Shown here: one piece after another, positions 1,397 through 21,679 of the stretch | Layout of the letters: every line of letters begins with the position of its first letter | Numbering within the stretch: position 1 is the first letter of the stretch | From: an uncultured delta proteobacterium | GTDB taxonomy: Bacteria > Desulfobacterota > DSM-4660 > Desulfatiglandales > HGW-15 | Length of the DNA: 64,000 bases | Direction: 5' to 3' | Assembly (NCBI GenBank): GCA_963776085.1 | Contig: CAVZMS010000124.1 | Coordinates: 2,488-66,487 of the forward strand | Notes under the pieces: model-generated | What the model was told of the DNA's origin: nothing | The model's database searches: none | Seen by the model: the letters and a program-made list of their open reading frames with translations, nothing else | Translations under genes and position numbers: made by a program

Positions 1397-1489
1397 CAAG
1401 ATTCTCCTTGTTGCTGTTTTGATTGAAAAGCCGATGGCTCCGGCATTCCGGATGTATCGGCTTTGATTTACTCTGTTTCTAATATTTAT

Positions 1490-2469: not shown

Positions 2470-2481
2470 TATTATTTGCCC

Positions 2482-3088
2482 CTATTCCCCTTTTTCAAGC
2501 TTTTCCTTTAAGCGCTTTAGAAGGTCCTCAAAGGAGGACTTGATTAAGATGTCGTTAAATTGACTCCTGTAGTTGTTTACAAGGCTTACTCCTTCTATAT
2601 TAACATCATAGACCCACCAAACGCCATCCTTTTTAATCACCCGATATTCTACCGGTATTTGCGTGCCCGCTGATGTGAGAACTTGGGTGGACACATTGCC
2701 ATAGTCTCCTTCAATCTTTTCATCCAGAAAAATGACCTTTCCCCCAGAGTATTGGCCGGCCTTGGCCATATAGGTCCTCTCGACCAGTAGCCTGAAGAGG
2801 GATATGAAATCCTTTTTTTCGCTGTCGGTCCTGTTTGTTCCAGTTCCTTGCCAGGGCCCTCCTGGAGAATTCCTCCCAGTCAAAAAGGCCGTCAACTATC
2901 TCAAAAACCATCTGCTCTCTCTTGTCCTTCATCTCCGGGGCTTTCAGCGAATTATCAAAGACTATGGCTATTAGTTTATCGGAGACGGCCTTGATCTTGT
3001 CTGTGGGTTCCCCTGCCGTGACGGTCATAGGGATCGCTAAAAAGATAGAGATTGAAAGGATTAATCGTTTAATATTTTTAAAGTACAT
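2482..3088 (-). CDS. mlaC: MlaC/Ttg2D-type periplasmic phospholipid-binding protein (one frame shift)
   Basis: Fragment 2720-3088 has a signal peptide and ...FDWEEFSRRALARNW. Fragment 2482-2895 has FISLFRLLVERTYMAKA...YRVIKKDGVWWVYDVNIEGVSLVNNYRSQF. The junction lies next to a T7 run at 2813-2819. Confidence 0.85.
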
Positions 3089-3116
3089 AACAACCTCATA
3101 TGATTTAATTTATCTC

Positions 3117-3558
3117 CTACACCTTGCCGAAGACATACTTTGATATCAGATCCTCAAAATCCACCGGTGGAAGGGCCTCCCTGATCTGTCCTCCCGGTTT
3201 AATTATCTTTTCAGACCCGCCTGGGGTGAGGGAAAGATATTTTTCACCGATCAGCCCCCTTGTCTTTATCGTCGCGATGGTATCTTCCTGTAATATTACA
3301 TCCGTGGAAATTGAAAGCACAACTTTGGCCTCATAATCTTCCATGGTGATGGAATCTCACTCGACCGACCTCCACCCCTGCAATGACGACCGATGACCCG
3401 GTTTGTAATCCCCCTATATCTGGAAAGATCGCATAGACCTCATATTTGTTACCACCGAGGATCTCCATCTTCGCCAGCTTAACAGACAGATATCCAAGAC
3501 AGATAATGCCGGCAAGGACAAATATGCCTACCGATAATTCAAGATCAAATTTTTTCAT
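3117..3558 (-). CDS. mlaD: MlaD (MCE domain) protein (one frame shift)
   Basis: The ATG at 3558 follows ggagg. The N-terminal part reads MKKFDLELSVGIFVLAGI...GGLQTGSSVVIAGVEVGRV (within 3331-3603). The C-terminal part is 3117-3344 (...IKTRGLIGEKYLSLTPG). Confidence 0.85.
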
Positions 3559-3594
3559 ATTGACCTCCAGGAAATATACTAAAAAAAACGTTCC

Positions 3595-3740
3595 GGGATT
3601 CAAGGGTTCAAGGATTCAAGTGAAACTGAAAAGGTTTTTAGACTGTAGGCATTTAGCTCTCAATCTTAAGGCTAACAACCTAACAGCCTTCAGCCTAAAT
3701 CCCTAAGCTCAGCCCCTTGAACCATGGAGTCCTTGAATCC
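3595..3740. repeat. nested imperfect palindrome built from short repeated words, between mlaD and mlaF
   Basis: GGATTCAAGG (3596-3605) pairs with CCTTGAATCC (3731-3740). GTTCAAGG (3606-3613) pairs with CCTTGAAC (3715-3722). There is an inner AAGGCT...AGCCTT stem. Confidence 0.8.
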
Positions 3741-3763
3741 TTATTATTTTCCTTTGTAATACC

Positions 3764-4511
3764 CTACCGATACGAAATGGGTCCCTCGGTATCCCCGCTA
3801 ATAAATTGTTTGACAACGGGATCCTCTGAGGCCAGTATCTCATCCGGGGTCCCGAGGGTCTTAATAACCCCTTCATGGATCATTGCCACCCTTTGAACTA
3901 TCTTAAACACCCTCTGTATCTCATGTGTGACGATGACACCGGTAAAGTTCATTCGTCTGTGCAGATCCTCGATTAAATTTAATATGGCATGACCGATTAT
4001 GGGGTCCAAACCGGTGGTCGGCTCATCAAAGAGCATGATCTCGGGGTGCCATATTAATTCTCGAGCAAGGGCGGTGCGTTTCTGCATACCACCGCTTATC
4101 TGTGTAGGATATTTATCTTCAGCGCCGGCGAGACCCACCTCATCCAATTGATCAATGACCCTTCTTCTTATCTCCTCCCTGCTTAAATCGGTCTTCTCCC
4201 TTAGGGGAAAGGCGACATTATCAAATACCGTCATGGACTCAAATAATGCCCCGCCCTGGAAAAGAAACCCTATCCGTTTCCTCAATTCAGCAATTTCTTT
4301 GCCCTTAAGACGGCCTATATCCGTGCCTTCAATCAGAACACGATCCTTTATCGGGCCTGATCAGCCTGGCGATATGTTTTAAGAGGACACTCTTGCCGTA
4401 TCCGCTCATTCCTATCAGGACAAGGATCTCCCCTTTATTAATGCTAAGGTTAACGCCTTTAAGCACCTTATTGCCATTGAACGATTTATGCAGGTTTTCA
4501 AGTTGAATCAT
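3764..4511 (-). CDS. mlaF: MlaF-type ABC transporter ATP-binding protein (one frame shift)
   Basis: Fragment 4329-4553, from the ATG at 4511, reads MIQLENLHKSF...GMSGYGKS (Walker A). Fragment 3764-4285 carries LSGGMQKRTALAREL and MLFDEPTTGLDP (signature and Walker B). Confidence 0.9.
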
Positions 4512-4519
4512 ATTACATC

Positions 4520-5304
4520 CTAAAAGAGCAGGGCGGTCATAAAATAATCCCATATCAGAATCATGGCGGATGATAGGACCACTGACTGGGTAGTAGCCTT
4601 GCTCACGCCTTCCGCCCCGTATCCTGATGTGCCGGTATAGTATCCCTTATAAGCAGGAGACCCATGATATAATCACGCCGAAACTTAATGACTTGTAAAT
4701 ACCCTCCAGAATATCTTGCATTTCCAGATAATTTGATATCTCGCCGAAGTAAGTACCGGGCCCTACCCCGAGTATCTTTACCCCTACCAGGTAGCCTCCG
4801 AAAATACCTATCGAATCAAAAATAGCCGTAAGCAAGGGCAAGGCAATAATGGCGGCAAGCAGATTAGGGACAACCAGATAACGGAAGGGATTTAATCCCA
4901 TCATTTCAAGGGCGTCTATCTGATTGCTTATGCGCATAATGCCGATCTCGGCGGTTATGGCCGATCCGGCCCTTGCGGTCACCATAAGGGCGGTAAGCAC
5001 GGGCCCCAGTTCTTTTATTATTGAAAGGGCCACCAATGGCCCGAGAAAGGCTACTGACCCGAGCCTGTTCAAATTGTAATATCCCTGAAGGGCAAAAACC
5101 ATTCCTGTAAAGGCGCCGATAAGGGCTATCAGAAATATTGATTGTGTGCCGATAAAACGGATCCTGCTTCAACAGGTTGATAACCTTAAAGGGAGGCGTC
5201 AGGGCATACATCAATGTCTTTACAAGAAAGATCGTCATAAGCCCCATCCCGGAGACATATCTTATTGTTGAAGTCCCTAAATTTCTGATAAAATCCATCA
5301 GCAT
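4520..5304 (-). CDS. mlaE: MlaE-type ABC transporter permease (at least two frame shifts)
   Basis: Fragments 4906-5304 and 4647-5102 are followed by a third-frame tail (AYKGYYTGTSGYGAEGVSKATTQSVVLSSAMILIWDYFMTALLF) that ends at a stop at 4520-4522, 8 nt before the mlaF start. Confidence 0.85.
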
Positions 5305-5484
5305 ATATCCCTCAAACCCTTTTCAGCATCCATGTGAAATAGATTATTATCGTGTCCAATCCGACCTTCTTCATATATCGCCTGATAAGATACTCATAAA
5401 TATCAGCGACTACCTGAGTATCACGGGAGGGATTTAATAGCATCAATAGGCAGATATTTCAATATAAAAACGAACGGATCTTTT

Positions 5485-6384
5485 CTAGGTTACACATGTC
5501 TCCAAAAAAGAAAGCATCATGTTCTCCGTATCGAGCTCGGCATGAAGTCCAATCGGGATAGTTCTATTTTCCACGTCATGTCCCACAGGCAATCCGTTAA
5601 TTACAGGGATATCTATCCCCGATGTAAAATCTCTTAATAATTCATTGATATCTGAAATATCGCCGCAATCCGTAAATCTGCCCGCGATAAGCCCTGAAAG
5701 ATCATCAATAACGCCGCTTAGCCTCAAATGGCTCAGCATCCGGTCTATCCTGTAAAGGGGCTCACCCTTATCCTCGATAAAGAGTATGGCCCCTTTCATC
5801 ATGGGCATAAAAGGGGTCCCTATAAGGCACGAAATGATGCTCAGGTTCCCTCCAATGACCATCCCCCTTGCCCTTCCCCGGTTCAGGACCATGCCTCCGG
5901 AGAGATCGACGATCCGGGGCGTCCTTGATGATGCAAGGTCAAGAAAGTCTCCCAGGTTGTCTCGGCCGTCCTGGAACAGGTCTCTTAACACCGGGCCGTG
6001 AAAGGTCACTAGATCCGTCTTTTGCAATATAGCGAATAAAAGTGCGGTGATATCGCTATAACCTACTATTATTTTGGGATTATCGAGAATTAAATCATAG
6101 TTAATCTTGTCGAGGATCCTGATGGTCCCATATCCTCCCCGCGCGCAAAAGATGGCATTAATCCTATTATCAGAGAACATGGAGTGAAGATCATCCAGCC
6201 GAGCCTCATCGTGCCCTGCAAGGTAGCCCTTTCTATTGAAAAGGTTGGGTGCCTCATGGACATGATATCCCTTTATATTAATGAGGTCTATTGTGGGTTG
6301 GATTTCTTCTTGATCGACCGGACCCGCAGGGGCAATAACTCCGATCGTATCACCCGGTTCCAGCCGCCGCGGTTTAATAGTCAC
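5485..6384 (-). CDS. ldcA: LD-carboxypeptidase (peptidase S66, muramoyltetrapeptide carboxypeptidase)
   Basis: Intact 299-aa ORF with [17 protein letters not shown] and VGYSDITAL motifs. Confidence 0.85.
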
Positions 6385-7148
6385 CTGTTCCTCTTATGAA
6401 TGATCATCAAGCCCTCAAGGGTCAAATCTTCCTCGACATGATCGATGCTTTCCGACTCTTTATATATAAGCGGCGCGATACCTCCTGTCGCAATGACCGT
6501 CAATTCATCTCCCATCTCTTTCTTGATGCGATTTACGATACCATCCACCATGCCGGCGAAGCCATAGATAATCCCCACATTCATGCCGCTTATAGTGTCT
6601 TTGGCGATCACATTTTTCGGTTTGGCAAATATCTCCACCCTTGGCAGTTTGGACGCCTTTTCAAAGAGGGCCTCACATGAAATAATAACCCCCGGAGCGA
6701 TGGCTCCTCCAATATATGCCCCATCCTTTGAAACGCAATCAAATGTGGTGGCGGTCCCAAAATCAACTATAATCAAGGCAGTATGATATTTTTCATAAGC
6801 GGCTACCGAGTTGACAATCCTGTCCGCTCCTACCTCCTTCGGGTTATCGTATTGAATCGGCATACCGGTCTTTAATCCCGGCCCCACGATCATGGGTCTG
6901 ATATCGTAATAGCGACGGCAAAACTCCTCCAATACGTTTAAAAGGGACGGGACGACGCATGAGATAATGATATCGGTAATGTCCTCCATCCTGATTCCTG
7001 AAGACCTGAAAAGATTGCCGACTGTGATTCCCATCTCATCAGACGTGGCATCTTTCTCAGTCCTTATTCGCCAATGCCCAAGGATATCGTCCTGTTTAGC
7101 CACGCCCAGAACGATATTAGTATTACCTACATCAATGCAGAGTAACAT
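6381..7148 (-). CDS. coaX: type III pantothenate kinase
   Basis: Intact 255-aa ORF. The N-terminus is [11 protein letters not shown], with ...[10 protein letters not shown] and GGIAPG motifs. There is a 4-nt overlap with ldcA. Confidence 0.9.
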
Positions 7149-7170
7149 ATATCAAATCCTTTTACGGTTT

Positions 7171-7258
7171 AAGGTATACGGTGTACGGCGTACGGTTTAT
7201 GGTTTAGGTTTACGGTTTATCCTTTATCCTATTCCTTACACCTTATACCTTATACCTT
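7171..7258. repeat. imperfect word-repeat palindrome between folP and coaX
   Basis: The left arm AAGGTATACGGTGTACGGCGTACGG (7171-7195) pairs with the right arm CCTTACACCTTATACCTTATACCTT (7234-7258). The middle consists of GGTTTA/CGGTTTAT repeats. Confidence 0.75.
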
Positions 7259-7263
7259 ATGCC

Positions 7264-8130
7264 TCATACTTTATACCCTGTTTTTATCGCATCAATAATC
7301 TTTACTGTTTCCAGCGTCCTTTTTACGTCATGCACCCTCACTATGTGGGCACCGTTCAATATACCCGCAGAAACGGTTGCCATGGTTCCGGTATCTCTTT
7401 CATCAGGCTCATTCTGAAGGATATGTCCGATAAATGCCTTCCTTGAGGTCCCCAACAGTATTGGCCTCTCCAAAGAGCTAAATTGTCTTAACTCCTTTAT
7501 TATCTCGAGGTTATGATGGAAGGTCTTACCGAAACCTATCCCAGGATCTATAATAATGAGGTCCTTTCTGATCCCGGCCTTAACCGCCCGTTCAATGGCA
7601 TCCCTAAGAAAGTCCAATATCTCCTGTATAAGGTTATCATAGGTGGGATTTTTTTGCATATCACCAGGGGTCCCCTGCATATGCATAAGAATAACAGGGA
7701 CACCTGCCTCCGCAACAACCGAGGCCATCTCAGGATCAAACCTGAGCGCGCTTATATCATTGATCATTGAAGCGCCTGCCTTCAGGGCCTCTACAGCCAC
7801 CTTGGCCTTGCAGGTATCGATACTGATAGGAATTTTGATATCTTTGCTAAGGGCCTCTATTACAGGTATAACCCTGGCTATCTCCTTATCGCATGGAACA
7901 GTCTCGGAATATGGCCTGGTCGATTCGCCGCCGATATCAATGATGTCGGCCCCTTCACGCGCCATGGCAATCCCCTGTTCGATCGCCTTATCCCCTTGAA
8001 TATAGAGGCCGCCATCTGAAAAGGAATCCGGGGTCACGTTAAGGACACCCATTATATGGGTCCTGTTACTCAGATTTAAAGAGTGATTGCCCCATTCCAA
8101 GACAAACCCCTTTTTCTGAAACCCCTTCAA
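7264..8130 (-). CDS. folP: dihydropteroate synthase
   Basis: Intact 288-aa ORF with [15 protein letters not shown] and [14 protein letters not shown]. It sits in the classical ftsH-folP arrangement. Confidence 0.93.
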
Positions 8131-9944
8131 GACTCTTTAACCTCCTGATCTCCTGCCGATTTAGACGAAGCGGCTAAAATAGCATCTATATCCTGGCTTT
8201 CGAGGGTCTCTTTCTCCAATAGGGCATTAGCCATTGCGTGAAGCGTAGCCAGATTGTCTTCAATAAGCTTATGGGTCTTATTATAGGAGCCTGTTACAAT
8301 ATCCCTTACCTCCTGGTCAATCTTTCTGGCCGTCTCTTCACTGTAATCCCTGTGCTGGGAGATCTCCCTGCCAAGGAATATCTGCTCCTCCTTCTTGCCG
8401 AATGTAAGGGGACCGAGTTTATCGCTCATCCCGTAATCACAGACCATCTTTCTGGCAAGTTCGGTTGCCCTTTCGATATCGTTGCCGGCCCCTGTTGTCT
8501 TCATATTGAGGACGATCTCTTCCGCGGCCCTTCCACCCATTAATATGCAAATGTTATTCAGCAGGTAGTCTTTCGGGTAGGTGTGTTTTTCATCAATGGG
8601 CAACTGCTGGGTCAGACCGAGCGCCCGTCCTCGGGGAATAATGGTTACCTTATGAATAGGGTCTGTATTAGGGAGTAATTTTGCAACAAGGGTATGTCCT
8701 GATTCATGATATGCGGTCGTCTTTTTCTCTTCATTGCTGATGATCATGCTTCTCCGCTCAGTTCCCATCAGCACCTTGTCTTTGGCATTCTCAAAGTCAA
8801 CCATCTCCACATTATCCTTGCCCTTTCTTGCTGCCATAAGTGCGGCCTCATTCACCATGTTTTCCAGATCCGCGCCTGTAAATCCCGGGGTCCCCCTTGC
8901 GAGGGTATGGATTTCAACATCCTTGGCCAGGACTATCTTCTTGATATGCACTTTCAGGATTCCTTCCCTGCCCCTTATATCCGGAATAGGGACCACCACC
9001 TGCCGATCGAATCGCCCCGGTCTTAAAAGCGCCGGATCAAGGACATCCGGCCTGTTAGTGGCGGAGATAAGGATGACGCCCTCATTGGATTCAAAACCGT
9101 CCATTTCAACCAGCAGCTGATTAAGGGTCTGCTCCCTCTCATCATGCCCGCCTCCCAGACCTGCGCCCCGATGACGACCAACCGCGTCTATCTCGTCAAT
9201 AAATATTATGCATGGGGCATTCTTTTTGCCCTGTATAAACAGATCTCTTACCCTCGAGGCGCCCACTCCCACAAACATCTCAACAAAATCCGAACCGCTT
9301 ATGCTGAAGAACGGCACGCCCGCCTCTCCCGCGATGGCCCTGGCCAGGAGTGTCTTGCCGGTACCAGGCGCTCCGACAAGGAGGACGCCTTTTGGTATCC
9401 TTCCCCCCAACCGCGTAAATTTCTTTGGATCACGCAGAAAGTCGATAATCTCCTGGAGCTCTTCCTTGGCCTCATCAATACCGGCGACATCTTCAAAGGT
9501 CACCTTCTCCTGGGAGTCGGTCATTAGTCTCGCACGGCTCTTTCCGAAAGAGAGGGCCTTCCCTCCGCCAGCCTGCATTTGACGCATAAACCATATCCAC
9601 ACGGCCGCAAATAAAATGATGGGAAGCCATGTGATAAATATCTGCAGCCATGGAGAACTATCTTCAGGTTTCACTGTTATCTTGACATTATTACGTCTCA
9701 ACTGGGATATCAGATCAGGATCATTAGGTGCCACGGTCTTAAAAGGCCCTTGCGAAGATGTGCCGGTAAGATTATTTCCCTGGATAACCACCTGCATCAC
9801 GCCTCCACTCTCCACCATACTCATGAAATCACTATACCCAACCGTTGTGCTGGCCTTGTCCTGGTGTTTAAACACCTGATATAACATAACGACCATAAGG
9901 CTTATGACCAGCCATAGAGCAAGATTTTTATAAATTGGGTTCAA
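8127..9944 (-). CDS. ftsH: ATP-dependent zinc metalloprotease FtsH
   Basis: Intact 605-aa ORF with an N-terminal [17 protein letters not shown], and the HESGH zinc site (YHESGHTL). Confidence 0.97.
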
Positions 9945-11240: not shown

Positions 11241-14200
11241 ATGAGATTCATCGCCGACCTGCATATACACTCCCATTTCTCAAGGGCCACCTCACGAGAC
11301 CTTGATCCTGAAAACCTTGCTATATGGGCCCAAAAAAAGGGCCTTACCGTCATAGGCACCGGAGACTTCACCCATCCCGGCTGGGTGGAGGAGTTGCGGG
11401 ACGAACTTGTTGACGCTGAGAACGGGCTTTATCGTTTGAGGCCTGATCTGGAAAAGATGGTTGAAAGAGAGGTCCCGGAATCCTGTAAGAGGCCGGTCAG
11501 ATTTCTGCTTTCAGGCGAGATAAGCTGTATCTACAAGCGCGACGGAAAGACCAGGAAGATACACCACCTGATTCTCATGCCGGATTTTGAATCAGTCATA
11601 AAGCTGAACAAGGCCCTTGAACGAGTGGGCAACATCAGATCCGACGGAAGACCGATCCTGGGCATAGATTCCAGAGAACTACTTGAAATGACCCTCGATG
11701 CAAGCGATAGGGCCTTTTTCATACCGGCCCATATCTGGACCCCTTGGTTCTCCCTCTTCGGATCCAAATCCGGCTTTAATGCCATAGAGGAATGCTTCGC
11801 GGACCTTACCCCCCATATTCACGCCCTTGAGACAGGGCTGTCCTCCGACCCGCCCATGAATCGCCTGCTCTCGGCCCTTGACGACTATCTGCTGGTCTCC
11901 AATTCAGACGCCCACTCCCCTTCAAGACTGGGGAGAGAGGCGAATATCTTGGACACGGAACTGGACTATGAGCAGATACTTAAGGCCATGATCAGTAAAG
12001 ACGGTTTTAAGGGGACCATCGAGTTCTATCCTGAGGAAGGAAATATCACCTGGACGGGCATCGTAAATGCCAAGTGAGGCTCCACCCGGAAGATACCAGG
12101 AGGCATAAAGGCGTCTGTCCCTCATGCGGAAAGGCCATCACCGTTGGGGTCCTCCACAGGGTTACGGAACTGTCCGACCGCGACAGCCCGAAGATCTCAA
12201 AGGACTTTTACAGCCTCATCCCCCTGTCCGAGATCCTGTCCGAGACCCTTTGTTGCGGGGCCGCGACTAAAAAGGCGAACTCCGCCTATGAAGATCTGCT
12301 TGCAGCCCTTGGTCCAGAACTGGCTATCCTTATGGAGATCCCATTAAAGGATATCGAGGATGCCGGCGGCATGTTACTGGCCACGGCCATTGAAAGGATG
12401 CGACAGGGCAAGGTTATTAGGGAAGCGGGGTATGACGGTGAATACGGGGTAATTCGTCTGTTCCACGAAGGGGACATAGCACAGATCTCCGGGCAAAAGA
12501 CCCTTTTTACAATCCCGAATGATGAGATCGCCGATAAGAAAAGTCCCACGACGACTAAAGGCCTGAAAAAGGATATATATGCCGATCCTATAGGCCGGGG
12601 AAAGGCCTCCTTTTCAGACCCGATCCTGCCTATCCTTAATCCGGAACAAAAAGATGCGGTTATGCATTTAGGAAGTCATCTTTTGATCGTGGCCGGGCCC
12701 GGCACAGGAAAGACCATGACCCTGACCCACCATATCGTTCATATTATACGCTCAAACATTGCCGAACCGGGGCAGGTGCTCGCCCTGACCTTTACAAATA
12801 AGGCAGCAGGAGAGATGAGGGAAAGGATAGATTCCCTGCTGCCCGAGAATCAATCCGTTGCGGTTCATGTGTCCACCTTTCATGGTTTCTGTCTGGAACT
12901 CCTCAGGAATGAAGCTGAAATAATGGGACTTTCTCCCTCTTTTAATATCTGCTCGGAACAGGACTCGTCAATAATAGCCCATCAGGTCATCTTGGATTAC
13001 GGCAAGGGCAAACGTCTGGCAGGGCAATTATTAAGACAGCTCCCCCGAATAAAAAGGTCCTCCGTCATAGATGAAGATACCGACAGGCAGCATCAAGACC
13101 TTTTCCCCATCTTTCAGAAATACCAGGAAAGGCTCAGTGACTTGGGCATGCTGGACCTGGATGACCTGGAGGTTGAGACCTTGAGGATGTTTAAAGAACA
13201 TCCTGAGGTATGCAGTAAATACGCAAGGCGTTTTCCGTATATCTTTGTGGATGAATACCAGGACACCAACCCGATCCAGTCGGCCATTTTAAAGGAGATC
13301 GTAAAGCAAGGCATAACGGAGATCTGCGCCATAGGGGACCCTGATCAGGCCATTTACGGATTTCGAGGGGCTGATGTCGGAAATTTCCATAACTTTTCAA
13401 AGGATTTTCCAGGGGCAAAAAAGATTTCCTTGTTGAAAAACTATCGCTCAACCGAGGTTATTTTAAAAGGGTCCTCAACGCTTATGGACAAGGAAAGGCC
13501 CCTTGAAGGCATCTCCGGAAAGGGGGAGCCTATTCATATCGGCACATGCCTAACCCATTCCGAAGAGGCGGAGATGGTCGTAGAACAGATAGAGAAACTG
13601 ATGGGAGGGATTACCCTCTTTTCCCTTGATAGTTCAAGGGTGTCTTCCCATGAAGATGGAGAAGACCTTGGATTTGGAGACATAGCGGTGCTGTACAGGC
13701 TGAATTCCCAGGGAGATGGATTTGAGGAGGCCTTTTTACGGGCGGGACTGCCCTATGTCAGGTCAGGTGAAAAGGCATTGATCAATCAATACCCGGTTAA
13801 TATTATATGGCGATTGTTTCAGACCCTCTCTTATCCTGATAACGACTACTATTTAAAGGCATACATGGACCTCCTTGGAGAAAACGGCCTTGCCGGAGAT
13901 AAGATATTAAGAGGATGCGCGCTTGAAGGCAGTCTTGAAGAGATTATCGATCATGCCTTATCATTGCATGAATTTGATCTCTCTTCCAAAGAATCGGCGG
14001 ATGCGGTCCGCCGCCTTAAGGCCATAGCGGAAAATATCGATGGAGATATAGGATCCCTTCTGGATAAACTATCCATCGACAGGGGCATTGACCATACAGC
14101 CCTTTCGGGGGACCGCATTGCGCTCATGTCTCTCCATGCGGCCAAGGGCCTCGAATGGCCCGTTGTGTTTATCACGGGATGTGAAGACAGGCTTATCCCA

Positions 14201-14440
14201 TGTTCCCTTTTCGGGGATCATGACGAGGCCGAGGAGAAGAGGCTCTTTTACGTGGGAATGACGAGGGCCCGCCGCAGGCTTATCCTGTCCCATGCCAAAA
14301 GGAGAAAGATCAACGGACGCATCCTTGACATGAAACCCTCACCCTTCCTTGCCCTTATCCCTGACTATCTGTGCGCCCCCCTCGAACGCGCCCCATGGAA
14401 ACGCAAAGGGAAAAAACACAAACAACTGGAGCTTTTTTAA
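11241..14440 (+). CDS. endonuclease Q-like (PHP-fold plus Zn ribbon) fused to a UvrD/PcrA-type superfamily-1 helicase (one frame shift)
   Basis: The N-terminal part 11241-12077 has DLHIHSHFSRATS, GTGDFTHPGW, PAHIWTPWFS and SNSDAHSP..LGRE. Adding one A to the AAA run at 12041-12043 gives EEGKYHLDGHRKC..CPSCG...GVLHRV, as in archaeal EndoQ. The helicase motifs are AGPGTGKT, TFTNKAAGEMRER, VDEYQDTN, GDPDQAIYGFRGA, KNYRST, LHAAKGLEWPVVF and YVGMTRAR. Confidence 0.85.
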
Positions 14441-14531: not shown

Positions 14532-15689
14532 ATGGAAAAGACCCGCATAATAGAAAGAATTCAAGATATTAAACTCCCGGCAGATAGATCCGCTTTTCTT
14601 TGGGGCCCCAGAAAGACAGGCAAGACCACCCTTTTAAGACAAAAGTTCCCCGATGCATGCTGGATAGACCTTCTGGATCATGACATGTTTTTATCCCTCA
14701 GCCGAAAACCCACCGGCCTGCGTCAGATCCTGGAGGCGCAATCTTCCAGGGTTGTTGTCATTGATGAGGTACAAAAGGTTCCGGATCTCATGGATGAAAT
14801 CCATTGGCTTATGGAAAACAGGGACTATCGGTTCATACTTTCAGGCTCCAGCGCAAGGAAACTGAAAAGGTCAAAGGCAAATCTCCTTGGCGGCAGGGCA
14901 TGGCGTTTTGAGCTTTATCCCCTTGTCACTCATGAACTCAAGGGAAAATTTCATCTGGAAAAGGCCCTCCTTCACGGGCTCCTGCCTTCCCATTACCTCT
15001 CAACCGACAGTGAGATGGATTTAAATGCCTATGTCTTTGATTATCTGAAAGAGGAGATACAGGCAGAGGCCCTTACCCGCAATATGCCGGCCTTCTCCAG
15101 GTTTTTGGATTCCGCCGCGGCCACCAATGGCATGCTGCTCAACTATTCAAATGCAGCGCGGGAGGCGGGGGTCTCGGTCAAGACCATAAGGGAATATTAC
15201 CAGATACTCGAAGACACACTCATAGGACGCCAATTACCCCCATGGAAAAAATCAAAAAAGAGGAGGTTGATTGAGACCTCCAAGTTTTATTTCTTTGACA
15301 TGGGGATTGTCTCCGCACTTTTACATTATAAAACGCTTCACCCGTCCACCGACGGTTTTGGACGCGCCTTTGAGCACTTCATCATCCAGGAATGTTGGGC
15401 ATACAGGCATTACAGCCGTCTGGATTTCCCGATACATTTCTGGAGGACCGCCGGAGGGGCGGAAGTGGACCTTATACTAGGCGATGCCGAGGTAGCGATA
15501 GAAATCAAATCATCTGAAAACGCGGGAGACAGAACAAAGGGCATTCATCTTTTTAAAGAGGAATTCAAATGTAAGAATGCCTTCATCGTCTCAAGGGACA
15601 GGGTTCCAAGAAAGGCAACCTCAGACATCACCGTACTGCCCTGGAAGACCTTCTGCGAGATGCTCTGGGATGGCCGCATTATAAGATAA
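14532..15689 (+). CDS. AAA-family ATPase of the AAA_14 + DUF4143 type
   Basis: Intact 385-aa ORF with GPRKTGKTTL (Walker A) and VVIDEVQK (Walker B). The C-terminal half resembles DUF4143 (..FFDMGI.., EVDLIL). Confidence 0.8.
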   Translation: MEKTRIIERIQDIKLPADRSAFLWGPRKTGKTTLLRQKFPDACWIDLLDHDMFLSLSRKPTGLRQILEAQSSRVVVIDEVQKVPDLMDEIHWLMENRDYRFILSGSSARKLKRSKANLLGGRAWRFELYPLVTHELKGKFHLEKALLHGLLPSHYLSTDSEMDLNAYVFDYLKEEIQAEALTRNMPAFSRFLDSAAATNGMLLNYSNAAREAGVSVKTIREYYQILEDTLIGRQLPPWKKSKKRRLIETSKFYFFDMGIVSALLHYKTLHPSTDGFGRAFEHFIIQECWAYRHYSRLDFPIHFWRTAGGAEVDLILGDAEVAIEIKSSENAGDRTKGIHLFKEEFKCKNAFIVSRDRVPRKATSDITVLPWKTFCEMLWDGRIIR

Positions 15690-15792: not shown

Positions 15793-16016
15793 TCGAAGGG
15801 CCTGCCCTATTTTTTCCCTTGTAAAATAATTCGCGTTATAGTTATCATGCCTCCGCACAATCTCAGAAATTGTCAACTTTCCAACCCAATCTTTACAGAT
15901 TAATTATTAACCTGTAACCAGCCTATGTATTTCTAACCCCCCGTGTTACAGAAACGGGAGATTCAAAAGTTCATTTAAAAATTTATTAACCGGTTTAATT
16001 GGGGCATAAATTTAAG
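15793..16016 (+). repeat. copy A of a duplicated promoter/leader element (64-nt identical core at 15900-15963)
   Basis: It aligns with 18151-18372. A putative -35 TTGTAA (15819-15824) is followed by 17 nt and then TTATCA. The core is TTAATTATTAACCTGTAACCAGCCTATGTATTTCTAACCCCCCGTGTTACAGAAACGGGAGATT. The element ends 15 nt before the ATG at 16031. Confidence 0.85.
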
Positions 16017-16030
16017 GTAGAGATGAATCA

Positions 16031-16906
16031 ATGAATTTCGTTGCCATCGACGTAGAAACAGCGAATGCCGATATGGCATCGATTTGCCAGATCGGTCTTG
16101 TGAAGTGCGAAAATGGCGTCCTGTCGGATGAATGGAAAACCTATGTCGATCCAGAGGATTACTTCGATGGCATCAATGTATCTATCCACGGAATCGACGA
16201 GTCTGTTGTTAAGGGTGCCCCAACGTTCCCAGAATTAGCCGATACGCTTCGTTCATATCTCGAAGGTACAGTAGTTGTCTGCCACACGCACTTTGATCGG
16301 GTGGCGATACATCAGGCAGCTCAGCGGTATGGCGTTACCGCGCCAGAATGTACTTGGCTTGATTCGGCGCGGGTCGCGCGTCGGGCGTGGAAGGAGTGTG
16401 CATGGAAAGGGTATGGGCTTTATAACGTATGCAAGATCCTCGGATATGACTTCAAGCACCATGATGCCTTGGAAGACGCAAAGGCAGCGGCGCATATCCT
16501 TCTTGCCGCAACCAATGAAAGTGGGCTTGATCTAGATGGCTGGCTCAAGAGAGTACGACAGCCAATTGACCCCACAGCGAGCAGTTCTGGTTCCGCCATA
16601 AGGCGTGAAGGAAACCCAGAAGGCGCTCTTTACGGTGAGGTTCTTGTTTTTACCGGCGCCCTTGAAATACCACGGCGAGAAGCAGCCGATTTGGCGGCTG
16701 CCATTGGTTGCCAAGTGGCATCAGGGGTCACAAAGAAAACAACGATGTTGGTAGTGGGTGATCAGGACATTAAGAAACTCGCAGGTCACGAGAAGAGTTC
16801 TAAGCACAGAAAGGCGGAGGAACTCATTGAGAAAGGCATCCCAATTCGAATTCTCAAAGAAAGCGATTTCAAAGAGCTTGCGAGATTCTCGAACGAGATC
16901 GCCTAA
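16031..16906 (+). CDS. DnaQ-like DEDDh 3'-5' exonuclease fused to a C-terminal BRCT domain
   Basis: Intact 291-aa ORF with AIDVETAN (Exo I), CHTHFD (Exo II), HHDALEDAKAAA (Exo III) and a BRCT-like C-terminus (VFTGAL...TMLVVGDQ...KHRKAEEL..GIPI). Confidence 0.8.
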   Translation: MNFVAIDVETANADMASICQIGLVKCENGVLSDEWKTYVDPEDYFDGINVSIHGIDESVVKGAPTFPELADTLRSYLEGTVVVCHTHFDRVAIHQAAQRYGVTAPECTWLDSARVARRAWKECAWKGYGLYNVCKILGYDFKHHDALEDAKAAAHILLAATNESGLDLDGWLKRVRQPIDPTASSSGSAIRREGNPEGALYGEVLVFTGALEIPRREAADLAAAIGCQVASGVTKKTTMLVVGDQDIKKLAGHEKSSKHRKAEELIEKGIPIRILKESDFKELARFSNEIA

Positions 16907-16931: not shown

Positions 16932-17483
16932 ATGCCGCTGAATCATACATCGAAATATGCAGAGTTGACTGACGAGCAGTTTGCCCTTATTGGCAGACTT
17001 GTAATTGAATGGTCGAATATTGAGTTTCTGTTAGGAGTTTTGCTCAGTCGACTCCTTTTAACGCCGGAGTTTCTTGGGCGCGTTTACAGCGATGAAATGA
17101 GTGCTAGCAGAATACAAGATGCTCTAAAAAAGGCTTTGGATATCCACAGACATCGTTACGGCTCTAAGCTCGTCCCCCCTGAAACACTTGATGAGATATT
17201 GCGACTAAACGCTGATATTGAGAAGTTCCGCGGATTGCGAAACAGGTTCTCCCACTTCTGTTGGTCTCGCTCAAATGATAACGAGATATTTGGTTCTGGG
17301 CTGTCCGGGTTCGTACCTCCAAGCAAACGTCTTGATAAAGATTCAATGGAGGTAAGTGTGTCTGAGTTAAAAGAGTTTTACCGGAATGCGTACCAACTTG
17401 TTGAACACCTATCTGGTGTAATCCAACGGCTTCTTGAAACAGATGAAGATGAAAGTCTAACAAGAGCTTTGAGAAGGACGTGA
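16932..17483 (+). CDS. hypothetical protein with an Rx4H (HEPN-like) motif
   Basis: Intact 183-aa ORF, 25 nt after the exonuclease gene. The motif LRNRFSHFCW (R-N-x3-H) sits in a predicted helical protein. The HEPN assignment is inference. Confidence 0.5.
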   Translation: MPLNHTSKYAELTDEQFALIGRLVIEWSNIEFLLGVLLSRLLLTPEFLGRVYSDEMSASRIQDALKKALDIHRHRYGSKLVPPETLDEILRLNADIEKFRGLRNRFSHFCWSRSNDNEIFGSGLSGFVPPSKRLDKDSMEVSVSELKEFYRNAYQLVEHLSGVIQRLLETDEDESLTRALRRT

Positions 17484-18150: not shown

Positions 18151-18372
18151 TCGAAGGGATGGCCCTCTTTTTCCCTTGTAAAATAATTTACATATATCTA
18201 TTATACTTCCCGATATCCGCATCAATTCATAACTATTCAACCCCACCTTTACAGCTTAATTATTAACCTGTAACCAGCCTATGTATTTCTAACCCCCCGT
18301 GTTACAGAAACGGGAGATTTAAATATTCATTTCAAATTTTATTAACTTATTAAATTAGCTGATAAATTTAAG
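18151..18372 (+). repeat. copy B of the duplicated promoter/leader element (64-nt identical core at 18256-18319)
   Basis: It has the same element order as copy A. The -35 TTGTAA (18176-18181) is followed by 17 nt and then the -10 TATTAT (18199-18204). The flanks are diverged while the core is identical. Confidence 0.85.
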
Positions 18373-18991: not shown

Positions 18992-20083
18992 ATGAAAATA
19001 GAGGCTCTTCAATACCACCAGAAGGACAAGGATATATTTGTTTTTTCGATGGACCCACACTACATGAAACAGTTAGTCAAAATAAGTGATGTGTCGACAG
19101 GTGATAAGAACTTCCAAAGGCCATTCGATCCCAAGAGAGTAGCAGAAATTAAGACCTATGTTCTTGGAAGGGATAAACTCTATAAAAAGGGGAAAGACGT
19201 CTACGCCAAAGGTTTCATTCCTAATGCAATAGTCGTGAATTTGCCAAATTCTTACAAGGTTGAAAATCAAGGGAGTAAGGCATATATCCATTTCCCTGAT
19301 GTAAAAAATATTAAAAGGTACAAAGAAACAATAGAGATCATCGACGGACAACATCGGTTACTGGCATTCGATGATGAATGCAAGACACTTATGGGTGCGC
19401 AGCAATATGAGATGTGTTTTGTGGCCCTACTCAATCTTTCTGATAGCGAGAAAAAAGAAATATTCATGGTCCTCAATGAAAGACAAAAGACGGTAGATAA
19501 GAACATTCTTCTTCGTCACAAGAAGTTGCTCAAGCTCCTCCTGGACGATGAAGAAACCAGATATGATGTTATTACTAGATTGAATTCTGAAGTTGATTCA
19601 CCTTTCTACGGCAAAATCATTATGGCAGGCGAGAAGAAAACCTATGGTTTGAAAGCTGTCCAAATCGACAGTGTATTAAATTCCTCGAAGGCATTAGAAA
19701 AACTCATTGATTCAAAGGATCAGATAAGTGAGAAATCCTACAAGATATTAAAAAATTATTTCCTTTCTTGGCAGGCTAATTTTCCCATTGTGTGGTTCAA
19801 GGCCAATAATACCCTGACAAAAATGGCTGGCTTTCGCTTTATGTCCTATCTTTTTCCATACGTGTACGACATTTTGAAATCCGGAAAAAATTTTCAGATA
19901 AAAACATTTTCCGATATTATCTCTAAAATAAAATCGGATGATTTCAACGAAGAGTTCGATATCAAAAAAGCGGGCAAGTTTTCCCACTTTCAAGAACAAC
20001 GCGGGATAATCAGATATGCAACACAACTAGGCAAAGAGCTTAGAGAACATTTCCAAGAAAGAGATGATGATATCATTGTTTAG
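18992..20083 (+). CDS. DGQHR domain protein (DndB-like, ParB/Srx-fold superfamily)
   Basis: Intact 363-aa ORF with a literal DGQHR motif (IEIIDGQHRLLAF), followed by EKKEIFMVLNERQKTV, as in the DndB/DGQHR families. Confidence 0.8.
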   Translation: MKIEALQYHQKDKDIFVFSMDPHYMKQLVKISDVSTGDKNFQRPFDPKRVAEIKTYVLGRDKLYKKGKDVYAKGFIPNAIVVNLPNSYKVENQGSKAYIHFPDVKNIKRYKETIEIIDGQHRLLAFDDECKTLMGAQQYEMCFVALLNLSDSEKKEIFMVLNERQKTVDKNILLRHKKLLKLLLDDEETRYDVITRLNSEVDSPFYGKIIMAGEKKTYGLKAVQIDSVLNSSKALEKLIDSKDQISEKSYKILKNYFLSWQANFPIVWFKANNTLTKMAGFRFMSYLFPYVYDILKSGKNFQIKTFSDIISKIKSDDFNEEFDIKKAGKFSHFQEQRGIIRYATQLGKELREHFQERDDDIIV

Positions 20084-20842
20084 GTGCATATGGAAAAATT
20101 GTCAACCAAGCTCATCGCGAACCTCGATGTAACTACTATACGGTTCCAGACCGAAATCCTTAATCGCCTCAAGTTATTCGATTTTTCTAAATCGGCCATT
20201 CTTCACTATTCCGAATCGCAGGAAAAGGAATTCCAAGGCTATTCCTTTGAACAACTTCAAAGCCGGTTTAAGTTGGTAGGCTTTAAAGAAGGCAGTAAAC
20301 TTAAAAGTATTAAATATAAGGACATGGTCACTGTTGGGAACTCCTACATAAAAGGCGAACTTTCTGACTTGATTTTCGTCCTAAATATGGCAACCTTTGA
20401 GCACTGGCTTTTGTGGGTACTCAAAACCCTCATTCTATCTAATCCACGGGAATTTTACCCTAAGAGCAATAAACAGGTTGAGGTGACTTATCTCAAGAAA
20501 TTTGATGAAATGCCCATGCTCTGGGAAGAGCTTGTTTCTGATTATCTCAGTACCTTGCCATATCAAGGAATGAAGATTCTTCTGAAGACGTTCTTGAGTT
20601 GCTTCAGGCTCAAGGAAAGTGATTTCACCAAGAATTTATTGGGGATAATTAACGAAAACAGCCAATGCAGGAACGTCATTATGCATAACCAGAAGAAGGT
20701 AAATGCCGCATATACCAAGAAATGCGGGAGATTTGGAAAGTTTACTGAAGGGGAACATATAGTGGTTACTGAGGAATTACTATTTGACCAAGCAGATAAC
20801 CTTTTACGATTCATGCAAGATTTTCGTAATAATCATGCATGA
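20084..20842 (+). CDS. hypothetical protein with a C-terminal Rx4H (HEPN-like) motif, coupled to the DGQHR gene
   Basis: 252-aa ORF that starts (GTG 20084 or ATG 20090) directly after the DGQHR stop. The motif is QCRNVIMHNQKKV. The HEPN assignment is inference. Confidence 0.55.
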   Translation: MHMEKLSTKLIANLDVTTIRFQTEILNRLKLFDFSKSAILHYSESQEKEFQGYSFEQLQSRFKLVGFKEGSKLKSIKYKDMVTVGNSYIKGELSDLIFVLNMATFEHWLLWVLKTLILSNPREFYPKSNKQVEVTYLKKFDEMPMLWEELVSDYLSTLPYQGMKILLKTFLSCFRLKESDFTKNLLGIINENSQCRNVIMHNQKKVNAAYTKKCGRFGKFTEGEHIVVTEELLFDQADNLLRFMQDFRNNHA

Positions 20843-20896
20843 CAAGAAACCCTATAACAAGTTCTAGCCATGCCGGCATGGAGAAGGGAGACAAGG

Positions 20897-21679
20897 ATGG
20901 GTTTACTGCACGAAATCCAAACATCTGTAGTACAGGAGGGCGCGCATCTCGGCTCAGTTCTCCTCAAGCTACAATTGCTGGCTGCGAGACTTGGGAGTGA
21001 ACCCTTGGAGGAGTGGATCAAATACGAGTCCGAGGGTTATCCACGCGATGCTGAGATTCCGTCCTATCGTGTAGTCGCGGTTTCCTATAGAGGCACGTTC
21101 TCCGGTCCATTCGGCTCCGGAATTAGGGACGCCCAGATTCCCGGCTACTTAGTCGAGAAGATTGCCGGTAAGCAGTGGACAAAGCACGAGATCCGGGACG
21201 GCATTGCTGCGATCGACGAGCTCGTAAGGAGCTCTGCTGAAGGAGATGGAACACTCGGAATCGATGCGTCAAATCTAATCCTGCTACTGCAAGGGAAGGT
21301 CTACGCAGACTATGCGTGCAACGATGTTCAGGGCACCATTTCTAGGGCGGCCTTGACTGAACTTCAGTACGCAGTTCGCAGCCGTATCCTCGAACTTACG
21401 CTTGAACTCGAGAGATCTATTCCGGCAGCTACAGAGATTACCTTTGGTAGTCCCGCGTCATCCGAGAAGTTCAATTCCGAGAAGGTCAATCAGATATCCC
21501 AGCAGATTATCTACGGAAACGTCACGACGATTTCGAGTAGCGGAGCAGGCTCTCAGATAAACGTTTCCCTCGGTGAGCGAGACGATAAAGCGTTCATCGA
21601 ATACCTCGTCAAAGCTGGAATTCCCAAAGGTGATGCTTCAGAACTAGCTAAAATCGTTGCGGCTGAAGAGCCAGAGTAG
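20897..21679 (+). CDS. AbiTii-like abortive-infection family protein
   Basis: The N-terminus MGLLHEIQTSVVQEGAHLGSVLLKLQLLAARLGSEPLEEWIKYESEGYPRDAEIPSYR matches the AbiTii N-terminal pattern as I remember it. The gene is visibly GC-richer than its neighbours. A further 47 codons continue in the +1 frame to 21821. Confidence 0.6.
   Translation: MGLLHEIQTSVVQEGAHLGSVLLKLQLLAARLGSEPLEEWIKYESEGYPRDAEIPSYRVVAVSYRGTFSGPFGSGIRDAQIPGYLVEKIAGKQWTKHEIRDGIAAIDELVRSSAEGDGTLGIDASNLILLLQGKVYADYACNDVQGTISRAALTELQYAVRSRILELTLELERSIPAATEITFGSPASSEKFNSEKVNQISQQIIYGNVTTISSSGAGSQINVSLGERDDKAFIEYLVKAGIPKGDASELAKIVAAEEPE

Follow-up and report, generated by a model that had tools for sequence, protein, structure and literature searches.

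A DGQHR-domain gene and its probable HEPN-like partner as a co-inherited two-gene module resembling a distant relative of PD-T4-2

In a stretch of 64,000 nucleotides from an uncultured delta proteobacterium (hereafter the window), a gene for a DGQHR-domain protein is followed directly by a gene for a smaller, all-helical protein, and the data support the two as a stand-alone, tightly coupled and co-inherited two-gene module. DGQHR proteins are usually viewed as accessories to DNA-modification systems. We consider the chances slightly better than even that this pair is instead a self-contained, horizontally mobile defence cassette of the abortive-infection type, with the architecture of PD-T4-2.

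The gene pair and its conservation

ORF1 (18992-20083) encodes a 363-aa DGQHR-domain protein of the ParB/Srx fold that is DndB/DpdB-like. The partner gene, ORF2 (20090-20842), encodes a 250-aa all-helical protein that is probably a HEPN-like RNase and distant kin of the RiboL-PSP-HEPN proteins, as predicted from its homologues, an AF2 model and profile links. These and all features described below lie on the + strand. The junction between the genes reads TAG-GTG-CAT-ATG (20081-20092), comprising the ORF1 stop codon (TAG, 20081-20083), six nucleotides, and the ATG at which the partner probably starts; the sequence AGGTG, which overlaps the stop codon, is a possible ribosome-binding site. The partner most likely starts at ATG 20090 and has 250 aa, because the public gene call (P0001) has this length and the homologues share a conserved N-terminus, MEKL. 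An alternative GTG start at 20084 would give a 252-aa protein. The earlier note had placed the partner start at the very next codon after ORF1, which applies to GTG 20084 and not to the probable ATG; the coupling is tight with either start. Intergenic gaps of 0-11 nt were found in 17 of the 18 other intact pairs, namely those with an in-frame ATG.

When metagenome loci were retrieved with the DGQHR protein alone, the partner was found immediately downstream in 24 of 24, so that the co-occurrence of homologues on which the earlier note had made its proposal depend was borne out. The same adjacency was observed wherever a locus was retrieved by starting from one or the other of the two proteins, including those of relatives with 31-35% partner identity. 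The DGQHR motif and the partner motif E-x4-R-[N/H]-x3-H were kept in all 19 intact orthologous pairs, at partner identities down to 31%. The identities of the two proteins co-vary across the 171 pairwise comparisons of these pairs (r=0.916), with the partner evolving faster (mean identity 47%, versus 67% for the DGQHR protein). A scan of GTDB genomes returned only three loci, all partial.

The antitoxin-first gene order and the tight coupling would also suit a plain toxin-antitoxin or addiction module, in which a HEPN-like toxin would be countered by the DGQHR protein as a DNA-binding antitoxin and autorepressor, and which would stabilise a genomic island without sensing phage. DndB, a known ATP-modulated autorepressor (PMC10853773), offers a precedent for such a role. 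The degraded copies of the pair give indirect hints on toxicity and neutralisation in both directions. The partner is truncated in L043, where the DGQHR gene is intact, and in L048, where the DGQHR gene is intact as far as the contig edge, and a recombinase-associated inversion divides it in L003, hinting at counter-selection on the partner. Conversely, the DGQHR gene is fragmented and the partner intact in L012, and in L047 the DGQHR gene is broken and the partner unbroken up to the contig end, an arrangement unexpected for an essential antitoxin; L012 argues weakly against the DGQHR protein as an indispensable inhibitor, or reflects an assembly error. In addition, a 363-aa protein with an NTP pocket and invariant catalytic-type motifs is far more elaborate than the usual antitoxins, and PD-T4-2, the analogue in architecture, provides protection from phage. 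We therefore regard a pure addiction module as unlikely, while noting that toxin-antitoxin and abortive-infection roles are compatible and not mutually exclusive.

The reading as a defence cassette was further considered in its genomic setting. The neighbours of the pair in the window are of defence type (AbiTii, PDC-S01, PDC-S48 and a GajB-like UvrD helicase), and the local GC content is 0.39 versus about 0.47. No family recurred among the flanking genes of the related loci. Two candidates for a further component were rejected: AbiTii (20870-21679), which does not follow the pair in the other loci, and a methyltransferase or restriction gene, which is a direct neighbour in just a few of them (L001, L003 and L005).

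The DGQHR protein and the modification systems

ORF1 is a DGQHR-domain, ParB-fold protein by its model matches. The DGQHR model TIGR03187 matched it with 111.8 bits (cutoff 58.85) and spanned residues 5-284, the Pfam DndB model PF14072 matched with 46 bits (cutoff 29.1), and the PADLOC DpdB model matched at 3.5e-21; no DUF262 match accompanied these DndB/DGQHR matches in the domain-model scan. A homologue search with ORF1 found 73 sequences. Its predicted layout consists of an N-terminal NTP-binding ParB-like domain and a C-terminal helical region; the matching region of DndB-like proteins has been described as a helical DNA-binding domain (PMC12065111). The possibility that this C-terminal half is a second catalytic HEPN domain was rejected, as R-x4-6-H is not conserved there (homologue alignment A4).

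Three conserved motifs were located in the protein. The FQRP motif (F41-P44; 19112-19123) is the candidate first conserved motif of a ParB/DUF262-type nucleotide pocket, a role assigned by analogy with the DUF262/ParB literature (PMC12065111); R43 and P44 are invariant among 19 homologues with identity down to 39% (alignment A4). In the DGQHR motif itself (D118-R122; 19343-19357), read directly from the sequence, residues D118, Q120, H121 and R122 are invariant in the same alignment. The F-x3-N motif, FMVLN (F158-N162; 19463-19477), lies inside the conserved block FMVLNERQKxVxxNILLR, and F158, M159, V160 and N162 are invariant. The description of a 363-aa protein carrying DGQHR and a downstream FxxxN motif was thus confirmed, both motifs being legible in the sequence and TIGR03187 scoring above its cutoff. 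Further stand-alone DGQHR genes were seen beside non-HEPN partners, namely putative membrane proteins and a family of about 300 aa.

The best named matches of the DGQHR protein are DpdB and DndB, which raises the possibility that the pair is an orphan regulator acting in trans with a phosphorothioation or 7-deazaguanine system elsewhere in the genome; contig fragments, not whole genomes, were the basis of the analysis. However, the scores lie far under the equivalog cutoffs, both for the NCBIfam DpdB model NF041060 (71.5 bits versus 300) and for the dnd-associated DGQHR model TIGR04172 (43.4 bits versus 450). No modification gene was found by domain-model scans among the nine ORFs neighbouring the pair in the window, and no dnd, dpd, ssp or methyltransferase model appeared among the best 25 PADLOC matches for the 66 window ORFs. 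The earlier claim of a window free of modification genes accordingly holds for these nine ORFs and these best 25 matches, which cover the window in part. In about 25 distinct related neighbourhoods (up to 10 kb per side; several contigs of 35-680 kb), no dnd, dpd or ssp genes were found, which answers the earlier concern that the pair might sit inside a dnd or dpd cluster in relatives. No TGT or DUF328 genes were seen adjoining the pair in related loci. With its TIGR04172 score and no dnd genes nearby, ORF1 does not qualify as DndB, and with its NF041060 score and no linkage to DpdA or DpdC, it does not qualify as the DpdB of a 7-deazaguanine system. The conserved partner, moreover, is effector-like and not a modification enzyme, and we consider a role in trans with such a system very improbable.

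The partner protein and the HEPN families

HEPN proteins are marked by an R-x4-6-H motif with a polar residue (N, D or H) directly following the arginine; this motif closes helix-3, an acidic residue lies in helix-2, and an insert separates helices 2 and 3 (PMC3710099). The partner carries E189-x4-R194-N195-x3-H199-N200 (ENSQCRNVIMHN; 20654-20689), a putative HEPN catalytic motif that is invariant in its family, including the R, N and H of R194-N195-V-I-M-H199. The earlier note had the protein ending with RNVIMH; this segment (20669-20686) in fact corresponds to residues 194-199 of 250 and is followed by 51 residues. The AF2 model is all-alpha (pLDDT 81.5), with R194-H199 terminating a helix of residues 183-199 and a helical insert at residues 119-171. 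The conserved acidic residue E104 (20399-20401), located in the long helix 76-117, is the candidate helix-2 acidic residue; it is invariant in the partner family, nearly invariant in 46 distant relatives, and, when bona fide RiboL-PSP-HEPN proteins are aligned, falls on their WE motif. The helix placement in the model thus agrees with that of HEPN proteins at the level of secondary structure.

Direct comparisons of the partner with known families and structures returned little. The partner itself matched no Pfam, NCBIfam, PADLOC or PHROGs model, and none of its 44 close homologues carries a Pfam domain. Foldseek against the PDB gave no match at E<=0.001, HEPN or other, for either the full-length model (HepT 6m6w_B ranked 40th with an insignificant E=2.9) or the separately predicted residues 76-250, and TM values were all <=0.3. 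Sequence-profile searches of the PDB with alignments A1, A2 and A4 gave no usable match. A close HEPN template is apparently absent from the PDB, since a bona fide RiboL-PSP-HEPN protein submitted there obtained a best match of E=0.034 and no HEPN chain. Against BFVD, residues 76-250 gave one strong match (TM 0.80) to a Siphoviridae protein; as this target is uncharacterised, the match is uninformative on the function of the partner. No partner homologues were found in sequenced phages and plasmids (tblastn) or in IMG/VR viral contigs (scan), and a bona fide RiboL-PSP-HEPN protein likewise had no tblastn match in phages.

Profile searches gave a weak, transitive link to the HEPN families. A profile search with the partner collected 704 relatives at E<=1e-3, mostly aligning to residues ~75-250 alone, and a further homologue search, the third, for which the broad alignment A5 was the query, chiefly recovered the close partner family again. 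The family profile A1 reaches the protein P0173 at E=8e-10, and P0173 in turn matches HEPN_RiboL-PSP PF18735 across positions 8-186 of the 191 in the profile with 25 bits and E=2e-5, below the cutoff of 28.4 bits. PF18735 was matched by 8 of 149 partner relatives, whose recurrent Pfam matches were to HEPN families only; when ten relatives were scanned singly, all their Pfam HEPN matches fell under the gathering cutoffs. In alignments with PF18735 members, R194 and H199 fall on the R and H of those proteins. Using hhalign, the wider partner family aligned to four bona fide RiboL-PSP-HEPN proteins over 150 columns at P=2.5e-4, and the R and H were matched to each other; for the narrow family by itself P was 0.06, which is not significant. 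We conclude that the partner is probably a HEPN-like protein related to the RiboL-PSP branch. The earlier proposal of a HEPN RNase is likewise probable only: the motif at the end of a helix, the acidic residue and the weak, transitive PF18735 links speak for it, and the partner itself matches no HEPN model.

The Foldseek result and the missing direct Pfam match leave some room for a partner that is no RNase at all. It might be a helical subunit that acts as an adaptor, confers specificity or mediates oligomerisation, with R-x4-H as a structural or binding motif, and the DGQHR protein would then be the effector, by DNA nicking or by NTP hydrolysis or depletion. Both DNA nicking and NTP hydrolysis are known from ParB/Srx proteins (PMC10853773, PMC12839542), and the pairing of other stand-alone DGQHR genes with partners outside the HEPN families would be in line with such an arrangement. 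Nevertheless, E189, R194 and H199 are the sole invariant columns among 46 partner relatives and nearly invariant among 149, and as the sole invariant positions across hundreds of very divergent relatives they form a pattern that is characteristic of residues in catalysis and less so of structural ones. Since the motif also fits the HEPN hallmarks in sequence and position, and the profile links lead to HEPN families only, we judge a non-RNase partner to be improbable, a shade more so than the addiction module.

Proposed function and comparison with known systems

Taking the pair as a defence cassette, we propose the following working. Both proteins would be made in a fixed ratio from one translationally coupled transcript and would assemble into a complex, with the DGQHR protein, a ParB/Srx-fold, nucleotide-binding and DNA-associated sensor or regulator, holding the partner silent. 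The partner would be the effector, a metal-independent RNase that is HEPN-like and belongs to the RiboL-PSP/AbiD-F branch. A ParB-like NTPase switch would read a phage-derived cue, such as DNA that is foreign or modified, or an altered nucleotide pool, and license a HEPN dimer to cleave cellular and/or phage RNA, whereupon translation would halt and phage production would be aborted. The HEPN fold and RNase activity of the partner are only probable in this scheme, and we infer that the two proteins bind each other, what triggers them and that infection ends abortively.

A bolder version appears to us possible but doubtful. According to it, the DGQHR protein would sense DNA in a nucleotide-driven way, as ParB-type proteins do, and would license a separate RNase by allostery, giving a DNA-sensing, RNA-cutting switch for abortive infection. 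The lineage would be distinct from PD-T4-2 and would have spread to anaerobic Desulfobacterota, to bacteria of candidate phyla and perhaps to Asgard archaea; its partner protein would represent a large HEPN branch unmodelled in Pfam (>700 clusters at 50% identity); and DGQHR proteins would be swappable sensors, also working with membrane or other effectors, including on Pf filamentous phage.

If the defence reading is true, a design of ParB-fold sensor and HEPN effector that has been validated once, in PD-T4-2 of E. coli, reaches a divergent lineage of mostly uncultured anaerobes, and DGQHR proteins would serve stand-alone defence cassettes in general as a sensor module. The wider partner family would be a sizeable HEPN-like group that current Pfam and PADLOC models miss and that defence-annotation pipelines therefore overlook. 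Because of its compact size of 1.85 kb, the pair would also be a tractable model for a ParB-type NTP switch that controls a nuclease in trans.

The closest known system is PD-T4-2 of E. coli ECOR65, which protects against T4 both natively and in K-12 (PMC9519451; Vassallo et al. 2022). According to the published HHpred table, PD-T4-2A matches DUF262 (99.7%) and DndB PF14072 (96.7%), and PD-T4-2B matches HEPN_RiboL-PSP PF18735 (97.8%) (PMC9519451). Compared with that table at the domain level, the window pair likewise consists of two adjacent genes, the ParB-fold gene first and the gene for a RiboL-PSP-type HEPN protein second, a match that depends on the probable HEPN call for the partner; both are stand-alone cassettes without modification genes. 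The statement in the earlier note that, to its knowledge, such a pair had not been characterised experimentally is not upheld in view of this system, which has the same architecture and blocks T4 (PMC9519451). There are several differences: PD-T4-2 is much smaller, with 1.54 kb for its two ORFs together, against 1.85 kb for the window pair; its A protein is mainly of the DUF262 type, whereas ORF1 matches DndB/DGQHR and no DUF262; and the window partner is longer (250 aa), has an additional N-terminal helical hairpin of ~75 residues, and is only marginally similar to PF18735. In PADLOC, a library whose inclusion of PD-T4-2 models is unconfirmed, neither window protein matched PD-T4-2, and DpdB was the sole match. 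By its domain architecture, the pair looks like a distant relative of PD-T4-2.

Operonic links between ParB-like and HEPN proteins, to which the earlier note had alluded, are indeed on record in comparative genomics: Table 1 of Anantharaman et al. [quoted passage not shown] The window pair shares this predicted operon theme, and the HEPN branch is the one touched by the distant relatives of its partner. Those families are recognisable by Pfam, in contrast to the window partner, the methylase of the MAE_28990 operon has no counterpart as a conserved neighbour of the window pair, and the ParB-HEPN entry is a catalogue line without experiment.

ORF1 shares the DGQHR ParB-fold domain and the conserved pocket motifs with its best named matches, DndB, the regulator of dnd phosphorothioation, and DpdB, the ATPase of the Dpd 7-deazaguanine system. 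It differs from them in scoring far under the equivalog cutoffs, in having no DndACDE, DpdA or DpdC genes near the pair in any locus examined, and in its conserved effector-like, HEPN-like partner. In SspE, GmrSD and BrxU, DUF262/ParB domains act as NTP-driven sensors gating attached nucleases (PMC10952713, PMC12065111). The proposed working of the window pair resembles these DUF262 NTPases fused to DUF1524 HNH nucleases in that a ParB-fold NTP sensor would gate a nuclease (PMC10952713); its effector is a separate polypeptide and putative RNase, whereas theirs is a fused HNH DNase, and the window protein has DGQHR versus DGQQR. HepT-MntA and other HEPN toxin-antitoxin pairs are comparable in having a putative R-x4-H toxin downstream of a tightly coupled gene, which in the window encodes a ParB-fold DGQHR protein and not an MNT nucleotidyltransferase. 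The pair is thus a divergent variant of a design, a ParB-fold protein with a HEPN protein, that is already on record.

The DGQHR gene and its junction with the partner gene

ORF1 (18992-20083, plus strand) encodes a 363-aa DGQHR protein with FQRP, literal DGQHR, and FMVLN motifs (nt 19112-19123, 19343-19357, and 19463-19477, respectively), so the DGQHR and FxxxN-type motifs described in the earlier note were indeed found. The protein passed the TIGR03187 DGQHR domain model (111.8 bits, cutoff 58.85) and the Pfam DndB model (46 bits, cutoff 29.1), and its top PADLOC match was DpdB (3.5e-21). Its scores were far below the cutoffs of the DpdB equivalog (71.5 against 300) and of the dnd-associated DGQHR equivalog (43.4 against 450). 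In an alignment of 19 homologues, with identities as low as 39%, the block FMVLNERQKxVxxNILLR was invariant, as were the pocket motifs R43/P44 and D118/Q120/H121/R122. Because the domain models were passed, the equivalog cutoffs were missed, and the pocket motifs were invariant, ORF1 is, judged by sequence, a distinct clade of the DGQHR/ParB-Srx fold. In the related proteins DpdB and DndB, the same fold binds and hydrolyzes NTPs and senses DNA (PMC10853773, PMC12839542), as do the DUF262 domains of SspE, GmrSD, and BrxU (PMC10952713, PMC12065111). A PDB profile search with the ORF1 alignment found no solved structure close in sequence.

Both ORFs lie on the same strand where the earlier note had placed them, in a stretch with a GC content of 0.39 compared to ~0.46-0.48 on the flanks; the drop spans 17-21 kb. 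The partner had been said to start at the codon following ORF1, and GTG 20084, immediately after the TAG stop, is a possible start for ORF2; however, the public gene call (P0001, 250 aa) and the conserved 'MEKL' N-terminus of the homologues favor ATG 20090, which gives a 250-aa protein and leaves a 6-nt spacer, with AGGTG overlapping the ORF1 stop codon. The RNVIMH motif (nt 20669-20686) forms residues 194-199 of 250, within the last quarter of the protein and not at its terminus, as had been stated.

The partner as a probable HEPN protein

The partner had no match in Pfam, NCBIfam, PADLOC, or PHROGs, and its 44 close homologues all lack a name. Their alignment showed E189, R194, N195, I197, and H199 to be invariant, N200 to be nearly so, and E104, farther upstream, to be invariant as well. 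The AlphaFold2 model was confident and all-helical (pLDDT 81.5), featuring a pair of helices of ~42 residues each (6-47 and 76-117), a helical insert, a helix (183-199) that ends with the motif, and a last helix (228-249). HEPN domains are characterized by an R-x4-6-H motif ending helix-3, a polar residue after the arginine, an acidic helix-2 residue, and an insertion separating helices 2 and 3 (PMC3710099), a description that the motif and the predicted structure of the partner match.

Profile searching across 1.84 billion representatives retrieved 704 relatives of the partner (E<=1e-3), most of them aligning only to residues ~75-250. E189, R194, and H199 were the sole invariant columns among 46 distant relatives and were nearly invariant across 149. 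The only Pfam families recurring among these 149 were HEPN families, with PF18735, the RiboL-PSP-HEPN model, in 8; Swt1, Cthe_2314, and MAE_28990 had one match each. When ten relatives were scanned singly, HEPN matches stayed under the gathering cutoffs, and P0173, a relative reached at 8e-10, aligned with nearly all of PF18735 (25 bits, E=2e-5). Using hhalign, the wider family was compared with four bona fide RiboL-PSP-HEPN proteins obtained independently of it, giving P=2.5e-4 over 150 columns with the glutamate, arginine, and histidine in register. Comparison with a single RiboL-PSP-HEPN protein gave P=0.0015, the real sequence ranking second among 2001 shuffled decoys, and the narrow family of close homologues alone gave P=0.06. 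Foldseek found no significant match in the PDB for the full-length or the C-terminal model, a result of limited weight because a bona fide RiboL-PSP member also has no significant PDB relative by sequence (best E=0.034, unrelated chains). The partner is thus probably a HEPN protein: the R-x4-H context, the helix placement, and the hhalign result argue for the assignment, while the missing direct model match, the P of 0.06 for the narrow family, and the empty Foldseek search weigh against it. A rival explanation is that the partner is non-catalytic and the DGQHR protein acts as the effector.

Relatives of the partner's C-terminal ~175 residues make up a large family of 704 clusters (50% identity, E<=1e-3), whose members are mostly ~230-310 aa long with an E..R..H pattern and almost never attain the Pfam HEPN cutoff (P0128-P0265). 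The two members with examined context (within L021-L024) are solo genes lacking a DGQHR neighbor, and one from Paenibacillus adjoins a bona fide RiboL-PSP-HEPN gene together with Mrr-like and FRG-domain genes. The C-terminal domain has a structural twin (TM 0.80) in an uncharacterized Siphoviridae protein (BFVD A0A8S5NVI2). P0275, a 490-aa protein on a 9-kb ENA contig, has DEAD/ResIII helicase domains as well as similarity to the partner (60% identity across 71% of its length), which could reflect a gene fusion, a wrong gene call, or misassembly. In L016, L017, and L020, the cassette has a DEAD helicase gene in its vicinity.

Conservation, degradation, and surroundings of the cassette

In every locus examined from either protein, the DGQHR gene immediately preceded the partner in the same orientation. 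The expected co-occurrence was borne out when the DGQHR alignment alone served as the query: the partner was adjacent in 24/24 metagenome loci thus retrieved, and adjacency was kept in distant pairs (DGQHR/partner identities of 59%/35% in L001 and 52%/31% in L005). All 19 intact pairs retained both motifs; their intergenic gaps measured 0-11 nt, except in L038, which offered no in-frame ATG. In 171 pairwise comparisons, the identities of the two proteins were correlated (r=0.916), the partner evolving faster (mean identity 47% vs 67%).

Flanking genes differed wholly from locus to locus and included restriction-modification, inovirus, UvrBC, ABC transporter, IMP dehydrogenase, pantothenate, integrase, and transposase genes; when 78 flanking proteins of 15 additional loci were tallied by Pfam, no family recurred beyond two loci. 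Neither this tally nor the flanks of the loci examined showed any dnd, dpd, or ssp component, in agreement with the stand-alone pair of the earlier note. Alternatively, the pair could be a trans-acting regulator of a modification system encoded elsewhere in the genome. Relatives were named from Desulfobacula, other Deltaproteobacteria, Syntrophaceae, Patescibacteria, and, for the DGQHR protein only, one Lokiarchaeota MAG; these varied sources point to horizontal spread of the cassette. In L009 and L010 (2900-9100), it adjoins a small-gene block with matches to Zot-like and REP_ORF2-G2P (replication-initiator-like) proteins, which suggests an adjacent integrated filamentous phage.

Degraded copies gave mixed hints about the mechanism, pointing both ways: L043 and L048 have a truncated partner, and the DGQHR gene is fragmented in L012, with an intact partner, and in L047, with a partner unbroken to the contig end. 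A plain toxin-antitoxin module is a rival explanation here. The partner gene is split in L003, a distant copy of the cassette (ENA ERZ27297438 contig k141_2877631; 1206-9600; see also L004). In L003, the 5' half (residues ~1-146; 9101-9535) follows the DGQHR gene, and the 3' half, with RNLVVHN, is found on the opposite strand at a distance of 7.5 kb, where it is joined in frame to the C-terminal end of a 657-aa ORF for a large serine recombinase (1206-3179). The core common to both junctions, TGGCAGGG, corresponds to the 3' terminus of a tRNA-Trp gene (9527-9600), and inverting ~1515-9535 would restore an intact partner gene. This looks like a recombinase-mediated inversion via a pseudo-att site, silencing or disrupting the HEPN-like gene, whether as a single occurrence or as a phase switch.

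In the window, the surrounding genes look like a defense island. Upstream of the pair are a UvrD/GajB-like helicase (12074-14440), an AAA/DUF4143 ATPase (14532-15689) matching candidate system PDC-S01, and a DEDDh exonuclease-BRCT protein (16031-16906) matching PDC-S48. An AbiTii-domain gene (20870-21679; PF18864, 1.1e-44) lies 27 nt downstream on the same strand; since other loci lack it beside the pair, it was rejected as a component and regarded as a neighbor. AbiTii domains are usually fused to c2405-family HEPN domains (PMC3710099). Directly after the exonuclease gene, a 183-aa ORF (16932-17483) contains another R-x4-H motif, RNRFSH, with a faint match to 'HEPN pEK499 p136' (E=0.2) and, in PADLOC, a weak one to QatB, and it may be a second HEPN-like gene of the island; an IetA-like PADLOC match lies elsewhere in the window. 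A ~230-nt direct repeat (15811-16016 and 18168-18372; 81-87% identical overall, with a 100% identical 64-nt core at 15900-15963 and 18256-18319) brackets the exonuclease gene, the 183-aa ORF, and a 111-aa ORF, and its second copy precedes the DGQHR gene by ~620 nt. The repeat had no Rfam match, no unusual RNA fold (z=-1.8), and no counterpart in 54 related loci, and may be either the scar of an insertion or a regulatory region that has been repeated.

Proposed mechanism and comparison with PD-T4-2

The best-supported reading is a sensor-effector abortive-infection system in which the DGQHR protein, as a ParB-fold NTP switch, would read a DNA or nucleotide cue and control the HEPN-like RNase, both being produced from one coupled transcript. 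Other stand-alone DGQHR genes are tightly coupled to unrelated partners (few examples: L049, L050, L051, and L055), which is consistent with one conserved sensor whose effectors can be swapped. In the Rhizobium and Bacillus examples, both on plasmids, the upstream partner is a small, hydrophobic, putative multi-pass membrane protein, as judged by eye; on a Leptospira plasmid and in the Pseudomonas filamentous phage PfAC19, it is downstream, ~300-324 aa long, and weakly similar between the two (E=0.001). The PfAC19 pair (L055, 2974-4953) occupies an accessory region of the Pf phage, beside the phage repressor.

Operons joining ParB-like and HEPN genes were catalogued as early as 2013, RiboL-PSP-HEPN with ParB among them (PMC3710099). 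The earlier note knew of no experimentally characterized pair of this kind, a claim contradicted by PD-T4-2 from E. coli ECOR65, described as 'DUF262, HEPN' with two ORFs over 1.54 kb; its deletion in ECOR65 allows T4 to form plaques again, and it protects K-12 (PMC9519451). By HHpred, PD-T4-2A matched DUF262 (99.7%), DndB (96.7%), and ParBc (93.5%), and PD-T4-2B matched HEPN_RiboL-PSP (97.8%) and HEPN_MAE_28990 (96.9%) (PMC9519451). Because PD-T4-2 was described and shown to be protective, the cassette architecture is, by analogy, already known and validated at the phenotype level. The earlier sensor-effector defense or toxin-antitoxin interpretation is partly supported: it held as to the two-gene unit, but the HEPN assignment is only probable and the architecture has a precedent. 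The cassette differs from PD-T4-2 in its first protein (DGQHR/DndB-type instead of DUF262-type), in its partner, which is longer, far more divergent, and carries an additional helical hairpin at the N-terminus, in its host range, and in having no match to existing defense models. Judged from the published domain descriptions, the cassette is best described as a new divergent, PD-T4-2-like lineage of ParB-fold plus RiboL-PSP-type HEPN proteins, one that escapes current annotation models. PD-T4-2 is still termed largely uncharacterized in later papers (PMC12065111); the architecture would not surprise a specialist, and a point of interest is the mechanism of the PD-T4-2-like class.
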